A stretch of 64,000 nucleotides of DNA from Rhynchobatus australiae (lineage: Eukaryota), in contig JAUZTB010000071.1 of NCBI GenBank assembly GCA_034780895.1, positions 14,313,467-14,377,466 of the forward strand, read 5' to 3'. The notes under the pieces are model-generated. The model was not told the DNA's origin, made no database searches, and was given only the letters and a program-made list of their open reading frames with translations. The position numbers and the translations under genes were made by a program. Of the stretch, positions 6,030-62,800 are shown piece after piece. The stretch's first letter is position 1, and every line of letters begins with the position of its first letter.

Positions 6030-6375
6030 CCACTAGATGAACCAGGATCTAAGGTGGATAACTCAGAATATTAGCTACATTGGCTACTAGATCATGCATT
6101 ATTTGAGATATGTTCACTGCTAAATCACTCAGGATCTGAGATAAGCCCACCACTAGATCAGATAGGTTTGAAAGGATGCTCACTACAGGATCAACCAGCT
6201 TCTGGGACATGCTTGCTACTAGATCATCTAGAATCTGAGATACTCCTAACATCAGACCACTCAGGATATATTTCCTCCAGATCTCAAATGATTTCAGTTA
6301 TGCTAGATCACCTATGAGGTATTCTCATTGCCAGATCACTCAGGATCTAAGCTATGTTGACTGCTAGACTACTCA
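6030..6375. repeat. Degenerate 33-bp minisatellite (consensus near ctagatcactcaggatctgagatatgctcacca)
   Basis: Unit starts at 6087, 6120, 6153, 6186, 6219 and 6252 (exact 33-nt period), with looser units on both sides. Confidence 0.85.
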
Positions 6376-9935: not shown

Positions 9936-12544
9936 CACAACTAGAGAAATTCCATATGAAGCCATAAAACATTTGTCCTACTCATGCTACATGATTNNNN
10001 NNNNNNNNNNNNNNNNNNNNNNNNNNNNNNNNNNNNNNNNNNNNNNNNNNNNNNNNNNNNNNNNNNNNNNNNNNNNNNNNNNNNNNNNNNNNNNNNATTA
10101 ACATGCTTCTCTCCAAATGTGATTTAACTTAAGTTGCTATATGTACCCCTGTTGACTCTTAATGCCCTCTGAGTTACTGAAGCAGGACACTCATTTCTTA
10201 TGAATTGACCAATGAAATGTGGTATCCCAATTCTGAGAATATGTATTGGATCACAATGATGCACATTTTGTACATGCTGCAACAGCAAAATACTGTCGAT
10301 GCTGGAAATCTGAAATAAAAAGAAGAAAATGCAGAAAATACTCAGTAGGTCAGATAGCACCCATAGAGGAAGAAACAGAAAGGTTGATGGCCTTAAATCA
10401 GAACTGAAAAAAAATTAGAGGTAAACAGGTTTTAAGGTGCAGAGAAAGTGGAAAGGGAAGGATGGGGCAAAAGGGAAAGTCTATGATGGGGTGAAAGGGA
10501 AGAGAAGTTGGATGACCAAAAGCAATAATAATACAAGATGGGAGAGGTGATAAAGGGATATGTAAAGAAAAAGCAGTCTCTTCCTCAGAAGAATAAATGG
10601 AAGAAGCAGAATCATTAACTGATATTGCTGAAGGAAAGTACATGCCAGTTTGATGCTGTTCAATTCTGCAGCATCATGAGAAAAGCAATGGTGTACCACA
10701 CCCTGGTTTCATTCTAAGCTGCACTGTTGGACGGAGATCTAAGGAACTGTTTGTGCCATGTCTGACTCAAGCACTGAATTTTAAACATCTAGTTAATCAA
10801 CTTAAAGCAAAATGATGTGTAGATTGCTGGCAATGTTGACATTTATTCCCTGTCCCTAACTGCCAAGAGACATGTCAGTGCACAGTACCAAAAGGTAGAT
10901 CAGAGAGGCAGGTAAGAACCAAGATGGTGCTGGAATTCCCTGGCAACTGAGCCTTGTACAGACAAAGGATTTCTTTCCTTGAAGAGCTTGGTCAACCAGC
11001 TGAGTTTTAAGCATGAATTTGACAACTTAATGGTTACATTTTAGCTGCTTTTTCAGTTTATGCTGTTTTAAAAACAAGGTTAAATTCCCTGGCTGGTGTA
11101 GTGTGATCTTAAAAATGTGGCTTTGTGTGAGACAATGGCCCGGATTTTGTAACAGAGTTTTTCCTGCACTCATTGGTAACACATCCCACTGTGTTCACCT
11201 CCCTAGGCTGCCCAATATTCAGCTCTGAGGCTACACACATAAATCCAATCACAAAGGAGGGAGAGGAGTCAGGAAAAGATCTGCCCATGAACATAAGGAA
11301 TACCACAGTGGTTTAACAGTTTTGACAACCAGATAAACCATTATCAGGCTGTCAAAGCTGTCTAACCACTTTGCCATTCAGACTTTCAAAAACATTTCAA
11401 CACTATTAAACTATTAAAATGATTTTTAAAATGTTCAAAAAACACATAAATACACTTTAAGATTTAAATAAGCCAAAACAACTCATAAAATGTAAATTAA
11501 CTGAAACCTTCCATGGTTGCTTCCAGCACATGAACAGTGACATGGTTTTTACAGCATATCTAACCTGTTGCTGGATATTTGAGGGCATTCCCTCAGTGTA
11601 AGAACTGGGGATCCTTCATGACTTTGTACTTCATCACTGGACTCAAATCCAACATTGGGGCACATTCTTGAAAAATGCCACAAACAGCCAACAGCAACTT
11701 CAGGATATTCACAGTTGCACCAAAATCCTGAAGTTGTAGCAACCTTTGTAGTGAACCGTGGGCTGTTATGTGGGTTACTGCCAACAATTCCCTGAAAAAC
11801 TTGGGCCATTAGCTTAATCCTACCTCCAAGAACTACAACACATTATCAAGGCTTTCTATCAAGGTGTATTTGAGTGAGAACTATGTCCTCATATGAAATC
11901 CCTCAGCCATATTCTGTGATATCAAAAAACTCCAAAGATAACAATTTGTTCATTTATTTAACTAAAGATTTCTCGGAAACAATCAGATGGAGTAATCAAA
12001 CAGATTGCAAGCACATTGCAACTCCCAATCAACAGCAATGACTTTATCTGAGGCCTGTGATGCTGCCTCAGCTGACAGCTACAATTTCCTCTTGAAGAGG
12101 ACTCCCAATCCTGCTCTTCTTTGCTGCAGCGAGCATGGAATTTTGCGCCTGATCCACTCAGCCACACTGTGAAGGAGGTTTGTGACGCTTTCCCACAGTG
12201 GATCAGGGATTATTGGAGGGAAAGTGGTCCTTGGCTACTCTCATGTGCTCCCAAGAGATCAACTGTAAGCAGAGGCCAGGGAATAGATCCCCTGTTTTCT
12301 CTGTGGAGATAGTATAAGGCTTGACTAAGGCACAGAGCTTAAGTGAAGAAAAATAAATACCTCAAAAGCACCATTTGCAGCTGCCAGGAGTTTCTGCTTT
12401 CTGAAAGAATTTCTCTGGCTTCAGATATTGCGTTGGACATGGAAATAGGATTCTTTCAGTAATATCCATTTTATAAACTTACATTATGGTACTAAAATAG
12501 TCACTAAACCAACATAATAGTTCCAACAACAAAACTGTGTTTAG

Positions 12545-12850: not shown

Positions 12851-13324
12851 AATGGACTCATTAACCTGTTTATTTTAAATGGGTTAATATTTCAAATAAA
12901 ATACTGCCAGAGAAATTCCATATGAAGCCATAAAACATTTGTCCTACTCATGCTACATGATTTCCAAAGGGTCTCAGATCACTGTAAACATTTATGCTTT
13001 TTACTAAAATACTTAACTCGCATAGTACTAAGGTTCAAATAGATCAAAGTGTTGTGCTAAAATAGATGTTATAATTTTATTTTTTATTTTTCTGTTTTGC
13101 TTTAGAACCTCCTTTCACCCTTTTTCTTCCCCTGAAGATGGTGAATCTTGCTTTCACTGGTTAGAATCCTATGTCCACTTTTGTGTTCACACACCGCAAG
13201 GGATACTGGGACTTTGGAAAGAATGCAAAAGGAGCGCCACAAGAAATAAACACAAAATCATTCCAATTGATTGTGCTAAACAACATAATAGTAGCTCCAT
13301 ATTGAATAGAACCACATTTTAGAT

Positions 13325-29200: not shown

Positions 29201-32200
29201 TGGAACCAAAGTGCTAAAGCTGCTAATTTCGGAAATCTGAAATAAAAGCAGATAACACTGGAAATACTCAGCAGGTCAGGCAGCATCTGTGGAGAGAGAA
29301 ACAGAGATAATGCTTCAGTTGCTGGCCATTCATTGGAATTTTCATCAACCTGCAATGCTAACTCTGGTTCTCTCTCCACAGATAGCTTGCTGATAATTTC
29401 CAATATTTTCTGGTTTCATTAATCTAAATTCATGTTTTTCTTACCATCTTTAAACAGAAAAGGTTTCAATGCACTTACTTTATACTGACTGTTCAAAAAT
29501 TTCTTGATAATATTTTCATTTTACTACCTTGCAGCAATAGCCTCAGCAGTCAGTTTATGAAAATCCCCCTGAATCCCTTAAATCCTATGAAAATACCTTA
29601 GGTAATCTTTCCATTCATTTTTACACATTGATACAGATATTCTTTCTCTGGCACAAATCTCTACTATCATTTGATTGCTTCCAAGAGCAATGGTCCTATT
29701 ATGTAAAGACAACCCCAGTCAGTACTGAAATTAATGTCATCATAGCTGTAGTCTTCCACAATAATTGAGAACACATTTGGAGATCAGTTTCAGCTCCCTT
29801 CCCCTATCTAACTGTCTGGACACATAGTGTTATTAAACAATTTCTATCAGGAATGAAAACCTGCAAAGAACTTATCATTCTAATTTAATTCTCCCTAGAT
29901 TTTATAGCCATCAATTGAAGTAATTGTCCATTGTCTTGGGTTCTTGCTAGAAACTGTAGAACATCTTCAGATTTGTGGATCTTCTATTCCAGTTTCAGCC
30001 CTGCAACTCTGGGCACTTTTACAGTTTTCCCTTTGGTCTAAAATTTTGGACAAACTTAATTTAGTTACATTGTAAGGAATTTAAATGTGCTTTTTCTATT
30101 ATTTGTTATAATTGTCCAGTTTAAGGATTGTTTTTTATTTATTTCTTCTCTGCTAGTAATGGAAGTGATATAATTGTTCATGCTGAATGTTGAATTAAGG
30201 TTCCTAACTCCTTAGACAGATAAATGGGATTCTTCTGGACATTCTTCCTTGTCAGTCGCGAGACTAACATTTTCCCCATCCTCAGAGAGGTTTACAAAGA
30301 CAACTCAGAGACTTAAGAAGGGCATTTGAAGTCACATTTTAGCTGGATAAGAGAGTCAGATCTCCTTCTTTAAAGGACATTAGTGAACCAAATGATTTTT
30401 TATGAGAATCTGATACTTTCATGATACTAGCTTTTTATTCCACATTTACTTAAACAGTCAAATTTAACTTCCCCATCTGCCATTGTGGCAACTGAACTCA
30501 AATCATCAATTCATTTGACCAAGTGTCTGGATTATTAATCCAGTAATTTTACCAGTGTATTTCTGTATTCTATAATAGGGCAGGAAATGAAGGTTTAAGG
30601 TAAATAATAATAATTAAGGAATAGTAATACTGGAATTTTAATCAAAACAAGCATTTTCTTCACAAATAGTACAATTAACAAAACTATCCATTCACTATAA
30701 ATGAATGGGACACTTTTAACATAAACAAGAGTGCATACCAGATTAGAGCAAATGAAACATTAAGTCTAACAATGGAGATAATCAATGAGATATCAACCAC
30801 AAAAGAAACTTAAATTAAGATAATAATTACAGTAGAAGATTAATGAGGCAATTACTCTCCATGCAAAAACATTTAAACAGTGTGTGTACATAACTGAAGC
30901 CTGTGCTTGCAGGAAAACATTACATAGGTATAAAGTTCACAGCCAAAACTGTGAACCCAAACTCTTCAGCAAAGGCAAGTCTTAAATCGCTGGAGTAATA
31001 CTTCCATTTATCACAACCAAATGAGCAATTGAAATCATGACTCTCTGTAGGCATAAGTTGGTGCAATGGTAGGGATGAGGATATTATAGAGTAGTTTTAA
31101 AAAAACAGCTGACAATTTCAAGCTGTGAATCCACTCACATTCTGCTAGAGGGATGGTATTTCTCAATAGGAAACTTCCATAAGTTCCTCCCAAGTTAAAC
31201 ATTTGAATTGCGCTCAGCCGGTGAGTATTCAGGATAGGAAGTGTATATTATGCCCTTACTGTGAACTGGGTTTCAGTTCATCTGCATTCTTAATACCTTA
31301 TGGCAGTGGAAATCAGAAGGGGCCCTGCAGTGTGGGGCCAACATTCCTGGTGGAAATATTAAACAGAGGTTCTGTCATCTTCTTCTGCTCAATGATAAAG
31401 GTCTCATGACACCAATCGTAAAATAAGATAGACTGGGTATCTGTAATCATCCCACAAAAACTTTTCCATTTGCTTCCAGTCCTCATTCTAAATGTGGTGN
31501 NNNNNNNNNNNNNNNNNNNNNNNNNNNNNNNNNNNNNNNNNNNNNNNNNNNNNNNNNNNNNNNNNNNNNNNNNNNNNNNNNNNNNNNNNNNNNNNNNNNN
31601 NNNNNNNNNNNNNNNNNNNNNNNNNNNNNNNNNNNNNNNNNNNNNNNNNNNNNNNNNNNNNNNNNNNNNNNNNNNNNNNNNNNNNNNNNNNNNNNNNNNN
31701 NNNNNNNNNNNNNNNNNNNNNNNNNNNNNNNNNNNNNNNNNNNNNNNNNNNNNNNNNNNNNNNNNNNNNNNNNNNNNNNNNNNNNNNNNNNNNNNNNNNN
31801 NNNNNNNNNNNNNNNNNNNAGCCATTGGTTTCTTGAATATAAATTACTAGTTATTTTTCAAATGTGGATTTTAATTTACATCATTTATATTAGACAGAAA
31901 ATATGTAATTGCTCCTTTTCCTTTAATGTATCAGTAAAATATGAAATATCTCTGGTCTCATTTCCCTAATGAATCTCTGATAAAATACTTTAATATATTG
32001 CATGACCTTTATCCTTACTTGTTACAGATAAGTTACAGACATTCGTGGTACAGTATGGGCAGACCATATGTTTCAGTATGGAGATTTCACTGCCTAGTTT
32101 CCCACATGCAGTCATAATGACCTGCTTTTCACAGTTACCACAGCATTTGCAAGTTCAAAGGTCACACTGCTTTGATGTCAAGCACGAAATGTTTCCTCAC

Positions 32201-32759
32201 AAAACAATAACATACAACTTCAGCATGGACAGATGGTCCAAACAGCCTTCGTTGGGACACGCTTTAATTTAAACAGTCATTGTTCAACCTGGATTTAATC
32301 TGTGGCTTGTTAAACGGACCCATTTATCAAACGCAAGTACTGATGTACAAAACCAGGGTGAGCAGCTGTTGATATGGCAATTTCAATCCTTTAACCTATA
32401 GGAGAACCTTTTGACACCTTGGTAATATTTCCATAGAAATTCCTCCAGACACCCTCTGTGCAGCAGCCTCTTGCCTAAACACTTGATGCCATGACCTTTG
32501 ACATAACACACATTGGGTCACTGTGATACACTGATCGTACCATTATAAATGCTACTTCTGCCAGCCAATTATATAAACAGCAAAGCATCACTCTTGCCAC
32601 TTCTCTCAACTCCCAACCAGTGTCGGTGACCAAATAAATATAGCTATCCATCTCTCTATCTCCATCGATCTATGCCTCACTCCATCTTCTATTCCCTTTT
32701 TCTTTAGTCTTCATTTTTCTCTCATTTGCTTCTGTGTATTTTTCTTCCCAATTTCTCAA

Positions 32760-33275
32760 GTACCAGCTGTGGTAACATTCTCACTTTCGAAAGAAAAAAT
32801 TGTGTGTTTTAAATCNNNNNNNNNNNNNNNNNNNNNNNNNNNNNNNNNCACTCCAGTTCAGCACTGAAGGGATACAACCCTATTAGGCAATACCTTTCAG
32901 TTGAGATGCTAAACCAGTTGAGATGCCCTCTTAACTGAAAGATCTACAGAAATGTTTTTGAGAAGCAATGGAGTTCTCTGCAGTGTCCTGGTGAATATTT
33001 GTGTCTCAAGATTAGTGGGTTCTTACTACCTTGCTGTCGGTGAGAAACAGTATTTTGTTTTTTTTTGTGCATGTAAATACTCAGAGAAATGACAATAAAG
33101 TAAATGTTGAATCTTGAATCTTCAGTTTTGAATCTTGTTTGTAGGACCCTGTGTTATGAATTCTGACTGCTACTTTTCTTATATGGTTGGGACGACACTT
33201 CCAAAAAGTACTTTGTTAACTCTAAGGGGCTTTAGGATTGTGAAAGGTGCTACGTAAAAACAATCACTTCTTTAT
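32760..33275 (+). mobile_element. Deu-domain SINE
   Basis: ctccagttcagcactgaaggga..gagatgctaaacc..gtgtcctggtgaatattt..gtgaaaggtgctac. Confidence 0.65.
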
Positions 33276-33299
33276 ACTTTAGGATAAGATAGATAAAAT

Positions 33300-33845
33300 C
33301 CCTCAGGACTCAGCAATGAATTCAGAAATTTCAAACAACAATTCTTTTCAATTTGTTTCAGAATTGGCTAGTCTGATGAAAGGTCTTCAACCTGCAACGT
33401 TAATCCAATTTTTCTCTCTCCATAGATGCTGCCTGAACTGTTGACTATTTCTAGCATTCTTTTTAGTTGCCAGTTTCCAGTAATTTCAGTATTCAGTATC
33501 TTATTGTTCCAGTATTGCCTTTTTTCTCTCTCCTCTGTCTTCTTTCATCTCTTTCTATTTATGTCTCCTCCAGTCAAATCAGTAGGCCTTCACCATCCTC
33601 TCTTAGCTCATGCTTCTTCCATCACATTCTCTTGAGATCTGCACCCTATCAGACACATTCCTTCGATGCTCTCCATCCTTTCCCTTTCTCTTAAAGGATA
33701 TTCGTTTCCTAACTTTGCCTAATTCTGATGAAAGGTCGCTGAAAAGGTCACATCTTTCTCTCTCCACGTATTCTGTCTGAGCCATTAAGAATGTCCAGTA
33801 TTTTCTATTTTTATTTCAGATTTCCAGCATCCACAATGTTTTTAC
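33300..33845 (+). mobile_element. Penelope-like element 3' end with two tandem hammerhead-like cores
   Basis: 33300-33335 encodes PSGLSNEFRNFK, resembling the PxGLN end of Penelope GIY-YIG ORFs. CTGATGAAAGGTC occurs at 33373 and 33725, each followed by the ctctctccat/cagatgctgcctga terminal block. Confidence 0.65.
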
Positions 33846-36800
33846 TTTTTGTTTGTTATGGGCATAAAAAAGCTGTCCTCTCCTTGCAACTGAGATATTC
33901 TTTAGAAAAAAATCTGAAGTACATGAAATAGGCAAGGAAGGAAGTCAAACTATCTCTGAAGTAGGATTTGAGTGAAAAATGTACAACTTGTAAAACAAAA
34001 TGCCAACCAAGTTACAACCTAGCCATTCCCCTTCCCAGATACATTTACACTAATGCACCAGTATATTACCGCAAGCAAAGTCCAACCATACATTGGTTAA
34101 AGTGCTCCATGCTTCCTTTGTGGAGTGGCAATTGTTTTTCTCAAACACAACAGAATGTAGCATAGAAACTGTGTGAAGACTGGCTGAGAAAAAAGTCAAG
34201 AACATTGTTTATAGCTTCCTAACTAATAGGGAACACATGTAAAACACCCTTTTCATAACACAACCCTCGGTATAGTATGCTTTTATTGGTCCCAAAGGCA
34301 GCACTTTAGAGAGAGTCTACTTTCCACGGATACTGCCTTTGACCCCATGGCACTGTTATAGTTTAACTTCCTGACACATATTTTCTTGTGTGTAGAATTT
34401 GATAGAATATCACCAATTCAGTCAAAATAATGTACATTTATTTAGAACTAAATATTGGTATTTGGAAGGTATAGCGAGCATTCTCCCCATAGCCAAATGT
34501 ACATAGTTTTGCCAAACTTACAGAAGACTAGGTTAGCTGATTACCACTTCTATATGTTTCAAACAATTGTAAAAATCAAAAATAATTAGTAAGGCAAAAA
34601 CGATCTTCTTGAATTAAAGGTTTCCACCCATTGATTCAAATGTTGTGTTCTTCAACGCCATTTTGCTGGACATTTCAGTGACATGCATCTCTTGTGCAGA
34701 AAGTTCATTTGAATCTTATGAACGAAATTGTTGTGAGAAGAAACTTCAGAAGTTTAAATGAGACCTGGCGTGCTCATGGGACTGGGTGGCTGAGCGGGTC
34801 AGACCATTCATCGCTGGGCATGTCCTTTCCATTCAGCTCAGAGGGATACAATGGCATATTCAGTGTAAGTGGGCTGACTGAAGTTAGTTTGAGCTGAGCC
34901 TGCCTTGATCTTGGGAGAAAGAAAAGGCTGCAGAACTTGGCATTGATTAACACTTTTTTCATTTAGTTTCACAAATCATAACTGTCCTACACAGATGAGT
35001 TTTAAATTTGAAAATTAAAGCATCTGTCAGCTATTGCAGTGTCCTTACAAGACTGATTCAATTCAATTACAAAATGCTTTTATCAGGGATGTACAGTTGA
35101 AAATTGATTTTTTTTCCAGAGTTATGATTTGCTTCCCACCAGAAATTCAAGTGGGCACTTCCATTCTTCCCCCTCAAATATGATTTTCATGCTGGGATGC
35201 ATCATTTTTCTGACACCATTCCTTTTGTCTTGGGTTTTGGAAGCAACTGTAGTTTGCTGCAGCAAGCCAATGACTGAAATTGTCATTGGCTGCTCTTCCC
35301 ATTTCGCACACTAAGTGCCCTAGAATGTGCGCTAGAATATCCAGGAACATATTCTTTGCTTTTGGTTGAGAATTGGAAGAAAAGTTTCATCACTGGGCAT
35401 AATGAGTCATTTGACCACAAGGTGCACTGGATTTCAGAAGTGAATTCTTCCTCAAGGTTCTGCTCAAAGCAATTTTGGTGTAAGTTTTTCCCTCAGTTAC
35501 CACATTCTGGCAATGTTTTAGAATTCAGCTTTTTTTTAAGCTTTTGAACTGAGGTGTGCTTAGCTGAAGCACTTTTATTTTAGAGCTGAAAATGGAGTCA
35601 TCGCAAAAAATACATTACAATCTTAAATAACAAAAAAGACTTTAAAAATTATGTGGAAACACCACTTTCATTGATGCATGACATTCCATACTTTTAGAAA
35701 TTTATTGATTTGTTAAAGTCTAAAGTGTGTTATTTGTGTCCCTGCCCCTAAAATGTTTAATATTAAGAACTCCTTTGGAGGACTATCAATGACCTCAATT
35801 AATAGAAACTCCTGATTGTTAATTCATTTTGGGAATGTGGGCACTTTTGTCATCAGGAATAAATCAATTTAATGATTCTTTTAAACAGAACCAAAAGGTT
35901 GTGGAATCCCAGTTTGTGCTGGATACAATTTTTACTTGCGATTCCTCTATTTAGTGTGCTAGTTTTAGTTCAATCACCAGTAAGACCTCAGTGAAACTGC
36001 ATTTGTTGTTCAGTTGAGGTAGAGCCTTACACAATATCAACACTGAACTTTGAAAGCTTGTCTAAAATTGGAAGAAAATGCTGCATTTGTGGTGTACAGT
36101 ACTTAATGAGCATTGCTCTCCAAAAGTTAGCACATGAGAAACCCAGCACTTCCAATCCAAGAAGGCAAGTTATATTGGTACGGTTATACATAAACAACCA
36201 AAACAAGGCAAATGTAAGGGTTGCATAAAATGGGTCAGAAGAAACCTACTAGCTTAAAAAACAGGATCAGATCAGATCTACTTTGGAAGTAGTCAATGTG
36301 ACTGCAAGACAATATTGTCATTGTTTCACCCATCTAACTTGTTGGACAGTTGATCATTTTCAAATGGGTTTAAAGACTGCATTGGAGACAATAATTTGCA
36401 CTTGGGATTTCCATTTGAAAGGCATTACTGCTATATGTGGGAGATTTTGGATAAACTGAAACTTTGGAATAACTAGTTGTATGTGGTAAATTTGATGAAG
36501 GTGATAATTCTAGAAGTTGTTAAGGTTCTCTATAAATTGTGGGATGCACTTCAAGATTTGCAGACAAGACAGAAAAAATTGTGAAAAGTAATATTTTCTT
36601 TTATTAACTGTGCTAATCTGTAGAAATCAGTAGGCATGCTCCTTTCTGTGGGTGGGGTGGAGTTAGGCAGGGGCGGGGAGCAGCTTAAACTAAATCAACA
36701 CACTTAAAACTAAATCACATCTGTGGAATGTTTATCTAAGTAACTATTATTTTTTCCCTTTGGGCACTGCGGTCCCATTCCAGGAACCTGATTGGTTTGA

Positions 36801-37394
36801 TTCATGGGGTCTACCGCAGCAAAAGGTGAGTCAGAGATCTGGAATTGGATGGGTAGAGGGCAAGTCCTGGGAGTGGTTAAAAGGGAGATCAGAGATCATC
36901 GGAGCAGCCCAGCGAGAGGCCAGAGAGTCCAGGAACAGTCAGATGATCAGGCCCATAGCGATAGAGGCTTGATATTGTTGAATCTGCATCTTCTGTAATA
37001 TTGTTTTTAGGTAGCACCTCGGCAGCAACATTAAAATAAAGATGAAAAGAGTAAATTANNNNNNNNNNNNNNNNNNNNNNNNNNNNNNNNNNNNNNNNNN
37101 NNNNNNNNNNNNNNNNNNNNNNNNNNNNNNNNNNNNNNNNNNNNNCTACTTTGTAAGAACTCTTAAAAAAGCATACATCCATTGCCACAGCTACTTAATA
37201 TTGTGCTGTCTAGCAATTCAATGTGTGGGTTCCATTATGAGCTCTTGTGATGTTAAACAAATACCAGCGTAACAAGATTTAATACTTTAATATAACACTC
37301 TTCTGTAATCCATTTAACTGAACAGGATTAATGCCTCCATTAAAGGAATATACTAGTTTGAATATGAGTGGAGGAGGTAGGGTTGTTGAAAAAA

Positions 37395-39605: not shown

Positions 39606-40215
39606 CATAGCCAGCCCCTAATGTTGCATTTATCCCATGCTATAATTAATCTGGGCAGACTTGCTTCTGATTTTGACTCCAAAAAATATTCCCTTTGTCC
39701 AGTGTTAGTATCTCTCATCTTTGTAGGTGCTAATTTGACTACCACCAAATACCAATATAACTCATTACTTACATAATTTTATTAATTTAAATGCTTTGAT
39801 ACAAGAAAGAGTGAATATTTATCTGTTTCCATTTATATCAAAAAGTCTTAAACATTGGAATAAAATTGTTATAATTTAAATTTTATTCTAAATGATCTGT
39901 CTGATATAATCAAAAGATAAATGGTTAGTTAGAATTGCAAAAGCCAAGGGTGATACATAAGTTTGAAAAATATTTATTCATCAAATATAAAACACTGGTG
40001 ATCTTCACCTGAGGATGCACAATCACACACTGGCTGAATTTTGTCAAGAAGGCTTACAAGTTGAATGGGTACAAAGTTTCAGCTGGGATCTGTTTTCTTT
40101 CACGTACTCTGGAATCTCAACGGAATTCCTAATCAGATTATAACAGGCAGGGAGCAATAAGGGTGGGGGTCCAGGGCTTTAACGCCAGGTTTGGAACAGG
40201 CTGCTGCCTACTGGG

Positions 40216-40901
40216 GAGATACAAGCGACTGCAGATGCTGGAATCTGGAGCAACAAACAAACTGCTGGAGGAGCTCAGAAGGTCGAGCAGCATCTATGGG
40301 AGGAAAGGAATTGTTGATGTGTTGGGTCAAAAACTTGCACCAGGACTGAGAGGTAAGAAGCAAGATGGCCAGTATAAAGAGAAGGGGAGTGGTGAGAACG
40401 GAGTCTGAGGTGACTGGTGGACTGAGGAGGGGTGTAAGATGACAGGCAGGTAGTGCCAGGTAGGGGAGGGGAGCAGGGGTGGAGTTGGGAGACACTGGCA
40501 GGTGAATGATAGATGGAGGCAGACAAGAGTCTAGCATTGTGTTCCTGCTTATCTCCTTCCACCAGCTGTCTCCAAGCTTCACACTCCCCTCCTGCCACCT
40601 TGCGCCATCTGCCTCTCCATGTACCTACATTTCTTTTCTCTCTCTCTCTTTGTCTGCCTCGGTCTATCAATCATCTGCTACCCTCTGCTACCTGGCACAA
40701 CCTGCCCATCATCTTTCACCCCTCCTCAGTCCACAAATCACCTCGGACTCCTTCCCCACCCCTCCCCTTCTCCTCCTTATGCTGGCCATCTCACCTCTCC
40801 ATTCCAGGTCCTGAGGCAGGGTTTCAACCCAAAGCATCGATAATTCCTTTCTTCCCACAGATGCTGCTCAACCCGTTGGGTTCCTCCAGCAGATTGTTTG
40901 T
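40216..40901. mobile_element. Fold-back Penelope-like terminal element (about 690 bp) with target-site duplication
   Basis: The left arm (about 40249-40527) is the reverse complement of the right arm (about 40648-40905). The 14-nt direct repeat tgctgcctactggg lies at 40202-40215 and 40902-40915. Confidence 0.8.
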
Positions 40902-41629
40902 TGCTGCCTACTGGGAGCTTGAAGGGGAAGATTTGAGCCCCAACTGGGTTGGATCTTTGGATGGAGTAATGGTCTGATAAGGAGATTGAGTGATGTCTGG
41001 GCATCAGGTAAGTTTTTAGCTGTGGGAGGTAGAATACCTGTTCCTCCTGCTCCGCAAGCAGGGATATACCTCTTCTTTTTCCTGAAACTATCCTCTCATC
41101 CCCTGAGTTGGCATGTCACCCAAAGCTTGAGACAGTAGCCAATAATCAATTTCAGCTGAACCTCAGAGACTGATATTTTAATGCTGAGATTAATCAATGT
41201 AAAATGGGTGGATTAACAATCATTCCAAATTACTTTACTGAGGCATCTCAGAGAATTTGTTAGTATTTGCAAGTTATTTTGATGCATAATTTCATAGCCC
41301 AACATCTGATGAGAAATTTAAATATATTCCTGTGATTTGCAGGATTGGACTTGTGGATAAGTGAAAGACCATGCATACTTAAATGCCTATTTACAATGTT
41401 CTGTCTGAGACTGGGTCACAGCCAAACAGTTCCTGCCTGCTTGGAACACTATCGTGTGGAAAATTCAACTGGTGCCTGGAAATGGAGGACAAATTCCCAA
41501 TAGAGTAAAGGTACGGGGAAGGCAGACTATGTACTTTCCACATATTTATTCTCATGTTTCCTTACAAGGAGTCTAACGCAACTCTCAGAGAAATCCCAGC
41601 ATTCCCATTCCCACACTTATTTTCTCCCT

Positions 41630-47774: not shown

Positions 47775-48543
47775 CTGTATTGGTATTGACACATGTATTG
47801 AGACACAGTGAAAAGCTTTTGTTTTGTGAGCCATCCAGACAGATCAAGCCATACATAAGTACATCAAGGTATTAAAAAGAAAACAGAATGCAGAATATAG
47901 TATTGCAGTTACAGAGAAAATGCAGTGCAGGTAGACAAATAAAGTGCAAGGGTCACAACAAGGTAGGCTGGGAGATCAAGAATTCAAAAGTTCATCTTTT
48001 AGCCTATGAGAGGTCCATTCAAGAGTCTGAAGACAGTGGGATAGAAGCTGTCCTTGAGACTGGTGGTTCATGCTCTCAGGGTTTTGTATCTTCTGCCTGA
48101 TGGGAGAGCAGAGAAGAAGGAATGACTGTGGTGGGAGGGGTCCTTAATTATGTTAGTTCCTGTCCCAAGGCAGTGGGAAATGTAGCTGGAATCAATGGAC
48201 TGGAGGTTGGTTTACATGATGGACTGGGCTGCATTCACAACTCTCTGCAATTTCTTGCTGTCTTGGGCAGAGCAATTACCATACCAAGCTGTGGTGCATC
48301 TGGATAAGANNNNNNNNNNNNNNNNNNNNNNNNNNNNNNNNNNNNNNNNNNNNNNNNNNNNNNNNNNNNNNNNNNNNNNNNNNNNNNNNNNNNNNNNNNN
48401 NNNNNNNNNATTACCATACCAAGCTGTGGTGCATCTGGATAAGAAGCTTTCTACAGTGCATCTATAAAAATTGGTGAGGGTCATTGGGGACATGCTGAAT
48501 TTCCTCAGCCACCTGAGGAAGTAGAAGTGTTGATGTTCTTTAC
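47775..48543 (-). mobile_element. Rex1/Babar-type LINE 3' fragment nested in a CR1
   Basis: MSPMTLTNFYRCTVESFLSRCTTAWYGNCSAQDSKKLQRVVNAAQSI is the typical Rex1/Babar ORF C-terminus. Same family as 63494-64000. Confidence 0.8.
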
Positions 48544-55339: not shown

Positions 55340-55545
55340 AACATAACAGAAATGCTAGAAATGCTCAGCAGGTCAGGCAGTATCAATGGAGAAAGAATCA
55401 ATTAACGTTTCAGGCCAATGCTCCTTCATCAGATCTTCAGTGCTGAAGAAAAGTAATTGACATGACACATTAACTCTGCTTCACTCTCCACAGATACTAC
55501 CTGATCTGCTGAATATCTAATACATTTTTTGCTTTTATTTCAGCA
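55340..55545. mobile_element. Short fold-back Penelope-like terminal element with an intact hammerhead-type core on the minus strand
   Basis: Arms ctcagcaggtcaggcagtatc..ggag / ctccacagatactacctgatctgctga. Minus-strand CTGATGA-AGG..CCT-GAAACGTT at 55404-55432. Confidence 0.75.
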
Positions 55546-59197: not shown

Positions 59198-59401
59198 GAG
59201 CAACACGCAAGATGCTGGAAGAAGTCAGTGGGTCAGGCAGCATTTATGGAGGGAAATAGACATCAATGTCATCTGATGAAGGGTCTCAATCCAAAACATT
59301 GGCTGTCCATTTCCCTCCATAGATGCTGTCTGACCCACTGAGTTCCTCCAGCATATCATGTGTTGCTCCAGATTCCAGTATTTACAGTCTCTTGTGTCTC
59401 C
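59198..59401. mobile_element. Short fold-back Penelope-like terminal element with a hammerhead-like core in the loop
   Basis: Arms gagcaacac..ggagggaaat / atttccctcc..gtgttgctc; loop ctgatgaagggtctcaatccaaaacatt at 59273-59300. Confidence 0.75.
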
Positions 59402-59842: not shown

Positions 59843-62800
59843 TCAAAGAATCAAGTGGAAAATTCAAAAGCAGACAAAAAAGGTTATAATAATTACAATT
59901 TAATACCTAGAATAACTCAACTGCACAACATATAAACTTCCTCACTTCACTGTTTGCTGATCTTATTTCAGGAGCATTCTGCTAAAAAGTCATACAAAAA
60001 TACATCTGGAGAATGTGTATATTTATTGTAAGCTGTAAATATGAAGTACTATTGACTGACCAGAGTGACTTTCCACAAAATTCTTCAATCTCTCGGTCAG
60101 AATCAGTGGCTATTTTCGTCAGAAACTGAAAAGTTAATGGTCTAATCACAAGATGCAAGATCATCTGAAAATTCAAATACGAGGACTGCCAAAATGACCT
60201 ATTCTTTAGCATTGACTGAAATGAAATCTTCATTATCACGAAGGGATAATACTCACGATTAAACAACAAAAAAACTACAGATGCTGGAAATCGTGAATAA
60301 AAATGGAAAATGCTGGAAATAAAAGATCAGGCAGCATCGGGAGAGAAAGAAACAGAGTTAACTGTGCAGGGCGGTCTCCATTAACATTGTCACTCTCTCC
60401 ACAGATGGTCCCTGACCCAATGAGTACTGCAAACGTTTTTTGTTTTTATTCAGATTTTAGAACAAGAAGCACTTGCACTGGTTTCTCTCCTGAAGTCAGG
60501 GTTATGTAAAATTTACGATTCTGCAAAAGCTGTCCAGTCTGTATTGCAATTTATTTTTCATTTCAGCCCACTTCAAATGCCGCCAAATGTCTTTCCTCCC
60601 ATCCTAATCTATTTTTAAATGTTAAGATAATCTAATATTATGTTCAGCAGTGCATTCCACAGGCTAAATATTAAATGTAATCTTGTACTTCATTCTGTTG
60701 TATATTATGAATCTACACTTATAAATTTAACTCCATATGGAAATGTATGGCCTTTATGGAATGGGAGATTTTCTCAAAGATATCGCCATCAAATTCTTCT
60801 CAAGGGCAGCTTGCAATGATGTGGTCCATTGTTCAATCTGGTATCCTTTGTCCTTGGAAATAATCTAAATAATTTTTGTCCCATTTCTTCGTAATTTTAA
60901 ACATTTCATTTAGATGACCCTGATAGCCCCTCATTATAACATTACTCACTGCAATTTTTCCGTTAGTATTTCCTCAGGTCAAGCAACATCTTTGTAAATC
61001 TATGCTCCATTCTTTCCATTACTTCCACATCTTCCTCACAGTGTGAGGACCCAAACTGCATTCAGTGCTACAACTACGTTCTAATGTTGAATGAATGCTT
61101 TTTGCTCATTTAGAAATTATTAGCAAACTACACATCAGATTTAGCCACTTGCAATTATAACACAGCATTGCTGAGCTTTCCTCAGTGTTCACTCCACATA
61201 CTATCATCTATCAAGCCTTGCATGCACTTTAAGCAAACAGAATAGACCAGTTGTGCCAAATGATTTGTTTCTGTCCTGTAAAATTTATGTAATTCTGTCT
61301 GACTTGGGAGTGCCGACCTTGACTACAAAAGTTATAGATGGAAAATCATTTTCCAGCAACTTGGGTTCTCACCTTGATGCAAAAATGTCATGTTTTTATT
61401 CTAAAAAATGTAATTGAGGAAACAAAAGAGACAAAGCATTGACATATTGAAAGGCTAGTCTGCAACAATAGCACTTCCCCTGTACAATTAGTATCTCCTC
61501 TATTAATGTTGGCAGAGAGAGTTTCTCAGTTGCGTACAGCCAGGAAAGACTCAAATGAATTGATCCATAAACAAAGTGGATTGTGATTTATTATAACCCT
61601 CCTTGCCGGATTTTTATGTCATTGTCAGAACAAATGTAGTAAAAGTCACTCTTAAGACTTTACGCTATGAAACCCAAAGATGTCTTCATAATATATGGAA
61701 GTACTCCTGAAAGAAAAGTCCAGAGCAGTTTCTCCTGTTTCATCATCTAGCGGAAGTTAATGATAAAGGAGATGTGTTTTTTTAAAAGCCCATTTATGTC
61801 TAGATACAATGTAAACCATTCAAGTTAGATCAGATTATTATTTCAAGTCATCTTCTAATTAAGAATTTTCAAGTCTGCTGAGTTTTGTGTCTTGAGAAAT
61901 CGGGACACGTAACATTTCCAGATTGTGTCCAGGCAGAAGTTTCACTGAATATAAAGCCACGTAAGCAACAGATATTTTGCCGTGTGAAAGCTACACAGTT
62001 AAAACACAGTAAGTTTTTTATATTGGCATTGTAAGCAAAAAATATTACACTTGCGATGGTTTGAATGAGTATCGTGAAAACTTTTTGTAGGTTTTATTTT
62101 TAATTAACAACTACACTGCTTAGTCGATCCCACTGACATCCTGGTTAGTCTTTGTTTCTGAATCTGCATTAACTATTGAATTTGGTCAAAAACCAGTACC
62201 AATGAAAAAGTATTATTACTTCTGTTATCTGCCTAACTTTACAGATATTAGGGCCAATATAACTGCCATGTTTTGCTTCAAGCGCACACAGCTCAATTAT
62301 TCATATTTTCCCAGATCTGATGCTTTGTGCATATAATTCCATAAAATGTTTTCATCTGCTTTTGAGGGATCTGCTTGCACTTTCAGACAGTCACTTAATT
62401 AAAATATTTAACAAAACATTTGAATTCTGTTAGTACATTGACACTGGCTTCTTACTGTAATGAATCAATAGAAGAAATATTAACTAAAATAAATATGCTG
62501 ACAGTTGTCTATAAAGTACACAATATCTAAGAATCCCATCGGCTCTCCAAACCTTCCTACTAACCATATATCTAAAGAAAGTTTGGATTGGGTCCAAACA
62601 ATTTTATCCAGATGTTACACTGATTTTTAAATAAAAAGTCATTTTATTGTTAATAAACACATCACATGGATTACTTCAAGACATGTATTCAAGTATAATC
62701 CAATCAATAAGTATAATTGTTTTCATAAGTATTATGCCATTCAATTAACATAATTAGATCCTAAAATTAGAAGACACTTNNNNNNNNNNNNNNNNNNNNN

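Follow-up and report, generated by a model that had tools for sequence, protein, structure and literature searches.

A decayed Penelope-like element end in Rhynchobatus australiae whose extra hammerhead ribozyme probably arose by insertion of a stub into the parent's 3′ UTR

Two hammerhead motifs at a truncated Penelope-like 3′ end

We analysed 64,000 nucleotides of Rhynchobatus australiae DNA (GenBank assembly GCA_034780895.1, contig JAUZTB010000071.1, positions 14,313,467 to 14,377,466 of the forward strand), a stretch called the window below and numbered from its first letter. Between 33288 and 33850 the window carries, in this order, C-terminal codons of a GIY-YIG protein, a hammerhead motif, a tail, a spacer, a second hammerhead motif and a second tail, with the following features:

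33288..33338, plus strand: final codons of the ORF of the Penelope element, encoding the GIY-YIG C-terminus (PSGLxxEFxNFx), and 5′ truncation point; relatives continue into GIY-YIG coding DNA.
33336-33338, plus strand: position of the family stop codon, CAA in the window copy, from family comparison.
33354..33359, plus strand: left copy of the putative 6-nt target-site duplication bounding the module, TGTATC in the family and TGTTTC in the window copy, from family comparison.
33357..33377, plus strand: 22-nt palindrome of the family majority, made of an inverted 5′ piece, a stem I strand and CUGAU; degraded in the window copy; a hairpin covering the beginning of core 1 is predicted.
33368..33406, plus strand: hammerhead 1, probably an insert and likely vestigial; C3 lies at 33373 and the cut-site base at 33401, and position 13 (33395) is C in the window copy, U in the family majority and A in canonical cores.
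33402..33487, plus strand: tail 1, the block found downstream of each hammerhead in the family, probably brought along by the insert; from similarity and profile.
33495..33500, plus strand: right copy of the putative target-site duplication, AGTATC in the window copy, from family comparison.
33501..33719, plus strand: the spacer, which is the element's original 3′ UTR; in the sister subfamily with one hammerhead it directly adjoins the stop-codon side.
33720..33755, plus strand: hammerhead 2, the normal terminal ribozyme, with canonical GAAA in the family; the window copy has lost the 3′ strand of stem II and G12.
33756..33850, plus strand: tail 2 and T-rich end, the 3′ end of the insertion, from profile and copy ends.

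Inspection of the sequence bore out the two motifs of a preliminary description, core 1 reading CUGAUGA-A-AGGU-cuuca-ACCU-GCAACGUU at 33373-33401 and core 2 reading CTGATGAAAGGTC at 33725, with a start-to-start distance of 352 nt. The same description had reported codons for PSGLSNEFRNFK ahead of core 1, which lie at 33300-33335, and a common block downstream of both cores, which was recovered as an alignment of 33351-33480 with 33700-33827 (65% identity, E 1e-7). A profile built from genome copies scored the two hammerhead-tail blocks at 96.6 and 60.7 bits. The hammerhead heptamer by itself occurred at chance level (13 observed, 14.3 expected), and a loose core pattern was present twice against 0.26 expected, a count of two being reached in 1 of 100 simulations. 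A search of 30000-37000 with Rfam returned no hammerhead match at E≤10, a silence that would be expected for minimal cores. The main support for the hammerhead call is the family context and not motif counts. The majority sequence of the terminal core in the family contains CUGANGA and GAAA, stems I and II and the palindromic 15.1-16.1, from which the terminal core of the window departs by loss of G12 and a stem II strand. In agreement with this, an intact-core pattern gave 94 exact matches in the genome and none for a control. Among 51 distinct cores, one-sided changes keep the pairs (1.1/2.1: U-A 36, U-G 10; 10.1/11.1: G-U 27, A-U 15), and two-sided covariation was non-significant (Fisher p 0.54 and 0.62). 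The claim of minimal type-I hammerheads with a palindromic ACGU stem III in a decayed copy of an abundant family was right.

Contigs of sequencing run X1 match 33076-34200 with zero differences, and the two-core arrangement is therefore no assembly artefact. The same locus was found in the runs of two other organisms, with 10 differences in 409 nt (33415-33823) in run X2 and over 33107-33440 in run X4, so that the insertion is old and shared. Run X3 holds an identical contig of 159 nt whose RNA nature is only a guess, and it was not used as evidence; neither were the many joints in run contigs that skip about 350 nt, which come from copies with one core that align to both tails. A single T-rich candidate of 10 nt with one mismatch was found as target-site duplication of the whole copy. 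Directly upstream, 33039-33125 holds the 3′ end of another repeat, one of very high copy number with a run-contig depth of ~20,000.

With 33365-33845 as query, 45 matches were obtained in the species' own genome, and 30 of them were fetched as loci. In these 30 loci similarity extends upstream for a variable length, up to ~700 nt, into coding DNA, and the window copy holds only the last 12 codons of this ORF; it is therefore a 5′-truncated 3′ end that starts ~50 nt before the stop. The translations of the relatives contain a GIY-YIG domain that ends in the same PxGLNxEF motif and is preceded by a CX4CxxC linker, which was seen in L171, L174 and L068; the window copy starts downstream of it. 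PF01541 (GIY-YIG) was matched in two of five relative proteins, with E values of 2e-4 and 5e-4 that lie under the curated cut-off of Pfam. None of six more decayed frames matched GIY-YIG in Pfam, and 15 of the 34 stop-to-stop frames of the window gave no match. Motifs resembling reverse transcriptase were seen by eye in L068 only, which belongs to a related family outside group A, and they had no Pfam or PDB match. A search for full-length copies recovered none; eight long open frames taken up as full-length candidates were rejected, being runs of N. In the accessible text of PMC8557442, a CX2-5CxxC linker before the endonuclease marks Neptune/Nematis elements. Judged from sequence, the window element is the end of a Neptune-type EN+ Penelope-like element (PLE), the GIY-YIG and linker criteria resting on the relatives. 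The proposed Penelope-like terminus held; the end of the GIY-YIG ORF lies upstream of core 1, and the relatives have GIY-YIG coding DNA further upstream.

Copies of the family and state of the two cores

Copies of the hammerhead-plus-tail block are very common: the profile matched 20 times in the window and 72 times in 40 blind stretches of 10 kb with 322,732 called bases in all. Strong spacer matches numbered three in this blind sample, ~1 per 100 kb, which by extrapolation puts two-core copies in the order of 10^4 genome-wide. Core pairs 286-519 nt apart, most of them at 343-376 nt, were present in 26 loci, one of which (L059) has a different arrangement. Group-A copies diverge from their majority by 19.8% (sd 2.2, n=47), the window copy by 22.2%; no young two-core copy was seen among the 47, the closest being 15.6% diverged.

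Ends were surveyed in 80 loci found by the spacer alone, 75 with a readable 5′ end and 70 with a readable 3′ end. The 5′ ends fell in the ORF (30), between stop and core 1 (9), in core 1 (1), near the cut site (3), in tail 1 (18) and in the spacer (14), spreading over model positions 12-752, whereas 52 of the 70 3′ ends lay at 925-993, the last 70 nt of tail 2. Forty of the 75 5′ ends were located upstream of the core 1 cut site and three within ~10 nt of it, and no pile-up at this site was found. Such a pattern of ends is that expected of reverse transcription that would initiate in the tail and continue through core 1. Tail-initiated reverse transcription has been demonstrated for an anole PLE, as described in the available part of PMC11167929.

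For position 13 we took 51 group-A copies spanning stop to spacer from 59 hits, after excluding seven hits of sister subfamilies and one with a foreign insert. In core 1 this position was U in 30 copies, C in 10, A in 4 and a gap in 7 (44 called of 51), while in core 2 it was A in all 33 copies that covered it (18 did not). A looser set gave T35, C11, A2 and two gaps among 50 first cores and A in 40 of 44 second cores. The remaining positions of core 1 are canonical in the group-A majority. Among 28 copies not found with the window as query, core 1 had U in 15, A in 4, C in 2 and a gap in 7, and both ORF-linked first cores of the blind 323-kb sample read GTAA. Because most copies carry GTAA, the defect of core 1 is mostly inherited and not decay specific to the window copy. 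C at position 13 was enriched only in copies found with the window as query (7/22) and elsewhere equalled the background T to C rate of 8%; the GCAA of the window therefore likely reflects a change from A to U in the master followed by U to C. A13U would be expected to abolish hammerhead cleavage. Our literature search for A13U, A13C or A13G with hammerhead found nothing relevant; Perreault 2011 required the core, A13 included, to be intact and took any change in it as disqualifying. GAAA was kept in core 1 by four of 21 called copies in the set without window-query copies, compared with a background T to A rate of 4%, so that a master with two intact cores probably existed. Three of these four copies have a core-2-like tail end, and the four may come from an early master.

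The first core fared worse in other subfamilies. Subfamily B kept the palindrome and has a scrambled core 1, subfamily C has lost CUGAUGA and shows AUAU at the palindrome, both with a canonical terminal core, and D and E retain no trace of core 1. Over shared columns with CpG excluded, divergence of the ORF was 0.237 in the no-insert subfamily (n=12), 0.188 in A (19), 0.139 in B (8), 0.119 in C (18), 0.112 in E and 0.052 in D; it thus falls as decay of core 1 advances (no insert > A > B > C), with the caveats that the groups were defined by motif and hand corrections, that they are best hits of different queries, which is a bias, and that n was 5-19 per group. Core 1 is likely vestigial. As had been described, both cores are broken in the window copy, which from its letters is inert, and core 2 has indeed decayed; GCAA is, on the other hand, no simple decay of GAAA, given that the family mostly has GTAA. 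The expectation that activity would reside in younger copies failed for core 1, whose defect was inherited from the master and is worse in the less diverged sister subfamilies.

Origin of the first core and alternative readings

In the group-A majority, hammerhead 1 and its tail form a 141-nt module between two TGTATC boxes that are 142 nt apart. A second element in locus L030 continues from the stop side straight into the spacer, without the module. With this no-insert element as query, 30 loci were obtained (one being the query's own), 26 of which read across the module site uninterrupted and have one terminal core. The no-insert majority aligns to the group-A majority with a single gap of 141 nt and is otherwise 91.5% identical over 306 positions. 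At its 5′ start the module has a short inverted piece, which together with the stem I strand and CUGAU makes up the 22-nt palindrome, and its 3′ limit is the tail end, a form like that of free stubs (inverted 5′ piece, core, tail). The accessible passages of PMC8557442 and PMC11167929 describe inverted 5′ pieces and insertion into the own terminal region as habits of PLEs. A module bounded by TGTATC, together with a subfamily that has the empty site, makes it likely that a ribozyme stub inserted into the 3′ UTR of the master itself.

We propose, with a probability of roughly 0.78, that the window holds a decayed, 5′-truncated Penelope 3′ end whose extra ribozyme came from insertion of a stub into the 3′ UTR of the parent and was probably silenced. 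The insertion would have generated the 6-nt duplication, and the free-stub form suggests that the insert was made by the endonuclease and reverse transcriptase of the family. The new master would have kept transposing, with reverse transcription that began in tail 2 and ran across core 1. Core 1 would have been inactivated through A13U and the predicted hairpin over CUGAU, and subsequently eroded and, in later masters, deleted, the terminal core staying intact. In the majority UTR this hairpin had a predicted pair probability of 0.80-0.92. Shuffling of the left arm hardly altered the cost of the double hammerhead (19.5 kcal/mol versus a mean of 18.5), and the hairpin effect is therefore a prediction only; single copies folded no better than their shuffles (z from -0.04 to -0.67, and 0.28).

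L030 (G000:C2:59918953-59922206) also presents a two-core element inside the tail of the no-insert element, in the same orientation and ~50 nt past its hammerhead, which is a further insertion into the terminus of a relative. The no-insert subfamily itself has tail-like words in the first 100 nt of its 3′ UTR (L239-L268), hinting at still older stub insertions.

An unlikely alternative to silencing is that core 1 was retained to serve the element as its own dimer partner, core 2 cutting site 1 in cis with no need of a tandem neighbour. Minimal PLE hammerheads require a partner, as stated in the available sections of PMC4209133, and in the group-A majority the substrate half (ACGU palindrome, U17 and AACU) and the stems are intact and complementary to core 2; the predicted probability of a stem III between the two cores is low but non-zero (0.04). 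However, relative to the free fold, placing core 2 on site 1 is less favourable by 9.4 kcal/mol and forming the full double hammerhead by 19.5 kcal/mol, in a model without tertiary terms, group C spread despite AUAU facing the ACGU palindrome of core 2 and the loss of CUGAUGA, and 5′ ends form no peak at site 1. We likewise regard as improbable the extended form, in which a Penelope lineage built its own dimer partner, with the enzyme half of core 1 off and its substrate half cut in cis, and in which the earliest master with two intact cores released a circle of ~376 nt. If true, this reading of a dimer partner and a ~376-nt circle would be a snapshot of the birth of a retrozyme from Penelope ends.

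The order of events could also be reversed: an old two-core master would have lost the stretch between the TGTATC boxes by a precise deletion and so founded the single-core subfamily, core 1 being a relic in this case too, but an older one. A tree rooted on D/E does place the no-insert subfamily next to A as its sister, inside the B and C part of the tree, and on this topology the module would have been precisely lost. The root is uncertain, since D and E themselves show lower divergence. Against this order, the no-insert subfamily is the most diverged (ORF 0.237 versus 0.188, UTR 0.238 versus 0.198), and in our judgement a master would more rarely lose the module precisely by way of a 6-nt repeat. 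We give such a deletion little credence; the insertion-first order that we favour rests on the divergence proxy and the anatomy of the insertion.

The preliminary description had taken the 352-nt stretch from core to core for a retrozyme-like unit, that is, a non-autonomous monomer that is excised, circularised and re-inserted. Its size matches vertebrate non-LTR retrozymes, which in one chondrichthyan have a mean of 363 bp (bioRxiv 10.64898/2026.07.22.740005), and the minority of copies with GAAA in both cores implies that an early master could have released a piece of ~376 nt. However, no core was flanked by spacer on both sides, and core 1 is preceded by the ORF and not by the end of a previous unit. 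The search for tandem arrays that had been suggested as a check covered 300 loci (1.27 Mb, duplicates included) and found none: 168 spacer matches in 153 of these loci gave no tandem unit and no same-strand pair at 300-450 nt, the closest same-strand pairs being 603, 698, 1151 and 1190 nt apart, plus one match split by an N run. The 94 exact intact cores are dispersed, with the nearest pair at ~24 kb, and none of the 30 inspected was part of an array. In addition, 30 of the 75 spacer-found copies begin inside the ORF, whereas retrozymes have no coding part. With core 1 an insert in the 3′ UTR of an ORF-bearing element, the retrozyme reading is largely refuted within the assembly examined and strikes us as very improbable; as about one fifth of the sampled genome reads N, collapsed arrays in such gaps are possible. 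A gutted element, with two pLTRs joined by deletion, was rejected because the spacer joins the stop-codon side in the no-insert subfamily.

Relation to known elements and other observations in the window

Minimal type-I hammerheads in the pseudo-LTRs of metazoan PLEs were described by Cervera and De la Pena (2014, PMC4209133). As far as the available text of that paper goes, the cores studied here resemble those in having CUGANGA, an extra base after A9, short stems I and II, no helix III and a 15.1-16.1 palindrome, and the PLE hammerheads reported there are mostly single motifs in truncated copies, found in fish Neptune/Poseidon elements. The same text places pairs ~3 kb apart, or close together on opposite strands, and mentions U3-A8 as a variant, whereas the family of the window has two same-strand cores in one 3′ UTR, the first of them nested and with A13U throughout the subfamily. 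The element is like EN+ Neptune/Nematis PLEs, in the accessible portions of PMC8557442 and Frangieh 2024 (PMC11167929), in its GIY-YIG domain after CX2-5CxxC (in the relatives), 5′ truncation, 3′ ends at a tail past the ribozyme and insertion into its own terminus. It differs from the elements in these portions in that the self-insertion was taken up into a master that spread successfully and passed it on to three or more subfamilies, and in that the tail lies ~100 nt past the core. Animal non-LTR retrozymes, in the consulted extracts of PMC7229834 and Li, Clavereau, Pollet 2026, share type-I cores a few hundred nt apart and derivation from PLE termini; they are tandem, with one core per unit and no ORF, whereas the unit in the window is single and ORF-linked and has two unlike cores, the first of which is defective. 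Tandem retrozymes from PLE ends, including those of one chondrichthyan, are known (bioRxiv 10.64898/2026.07.22.740005 and PMC7229834). A nested or duplicated hammerhead in PLE UTRs was not found described in the literature searched, nor was an inherited and probably silenced extra core of this kind; minimal PLE cores and the retrozymes derived from them were already known.

The locus itself is an inert fossil, and its element a small variation on a known Penelope type. The two-core family nevertheless offers a natural control on whether PLEs need hammerhead cleavage; in vitro, one PLE inserted without needing it, according to the accessible part of PMC11167929. The terminal core is canonical across successive masters, whereas a near-identical internal copy a few hundred bases away was mutated and then deleted, a contrast that hints at selection acting on the terminal ribozyme or on signals that overlap it. 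For the internal ribozyme it would suggest no selection in favour, or some against. Scans for hammerhead pairs ~350 nt apart can miscall PLE ends of this kind as retrozymes.

Further hammerhead-tail sequences were observed in the window. At 40215-40905, two ends of another family stand in opposite orientation, with arms of ~230 nt that are 76-86% complementary, and form an inverted pLTR pair. Inverted hammerhead-tail stubs lie back-to-back at 55343-55544, 29222-29414, 59206-59385 and 60278-60457, and the minus-strand core at 55432 retains CUGAUGA...GAAACGU. In the family tail, two pyrimidine tracts ending in CAG (33408-33425 and 33800-33825) look like splice acceptors, and in the majority an ATG comes after the first; they could possibly mark an intron end and an ORF start. 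A repeat with a period of 33 nt and six diverged copies, possibly coding, occupies 6071-6368 and does not appear in the output of Tandem Repeats Finder. Exact duplicates beside runs of 100 N (9943-9996 and 12909-12962; 48275-48309 and 48410-48444) are likely assembly overlaps.
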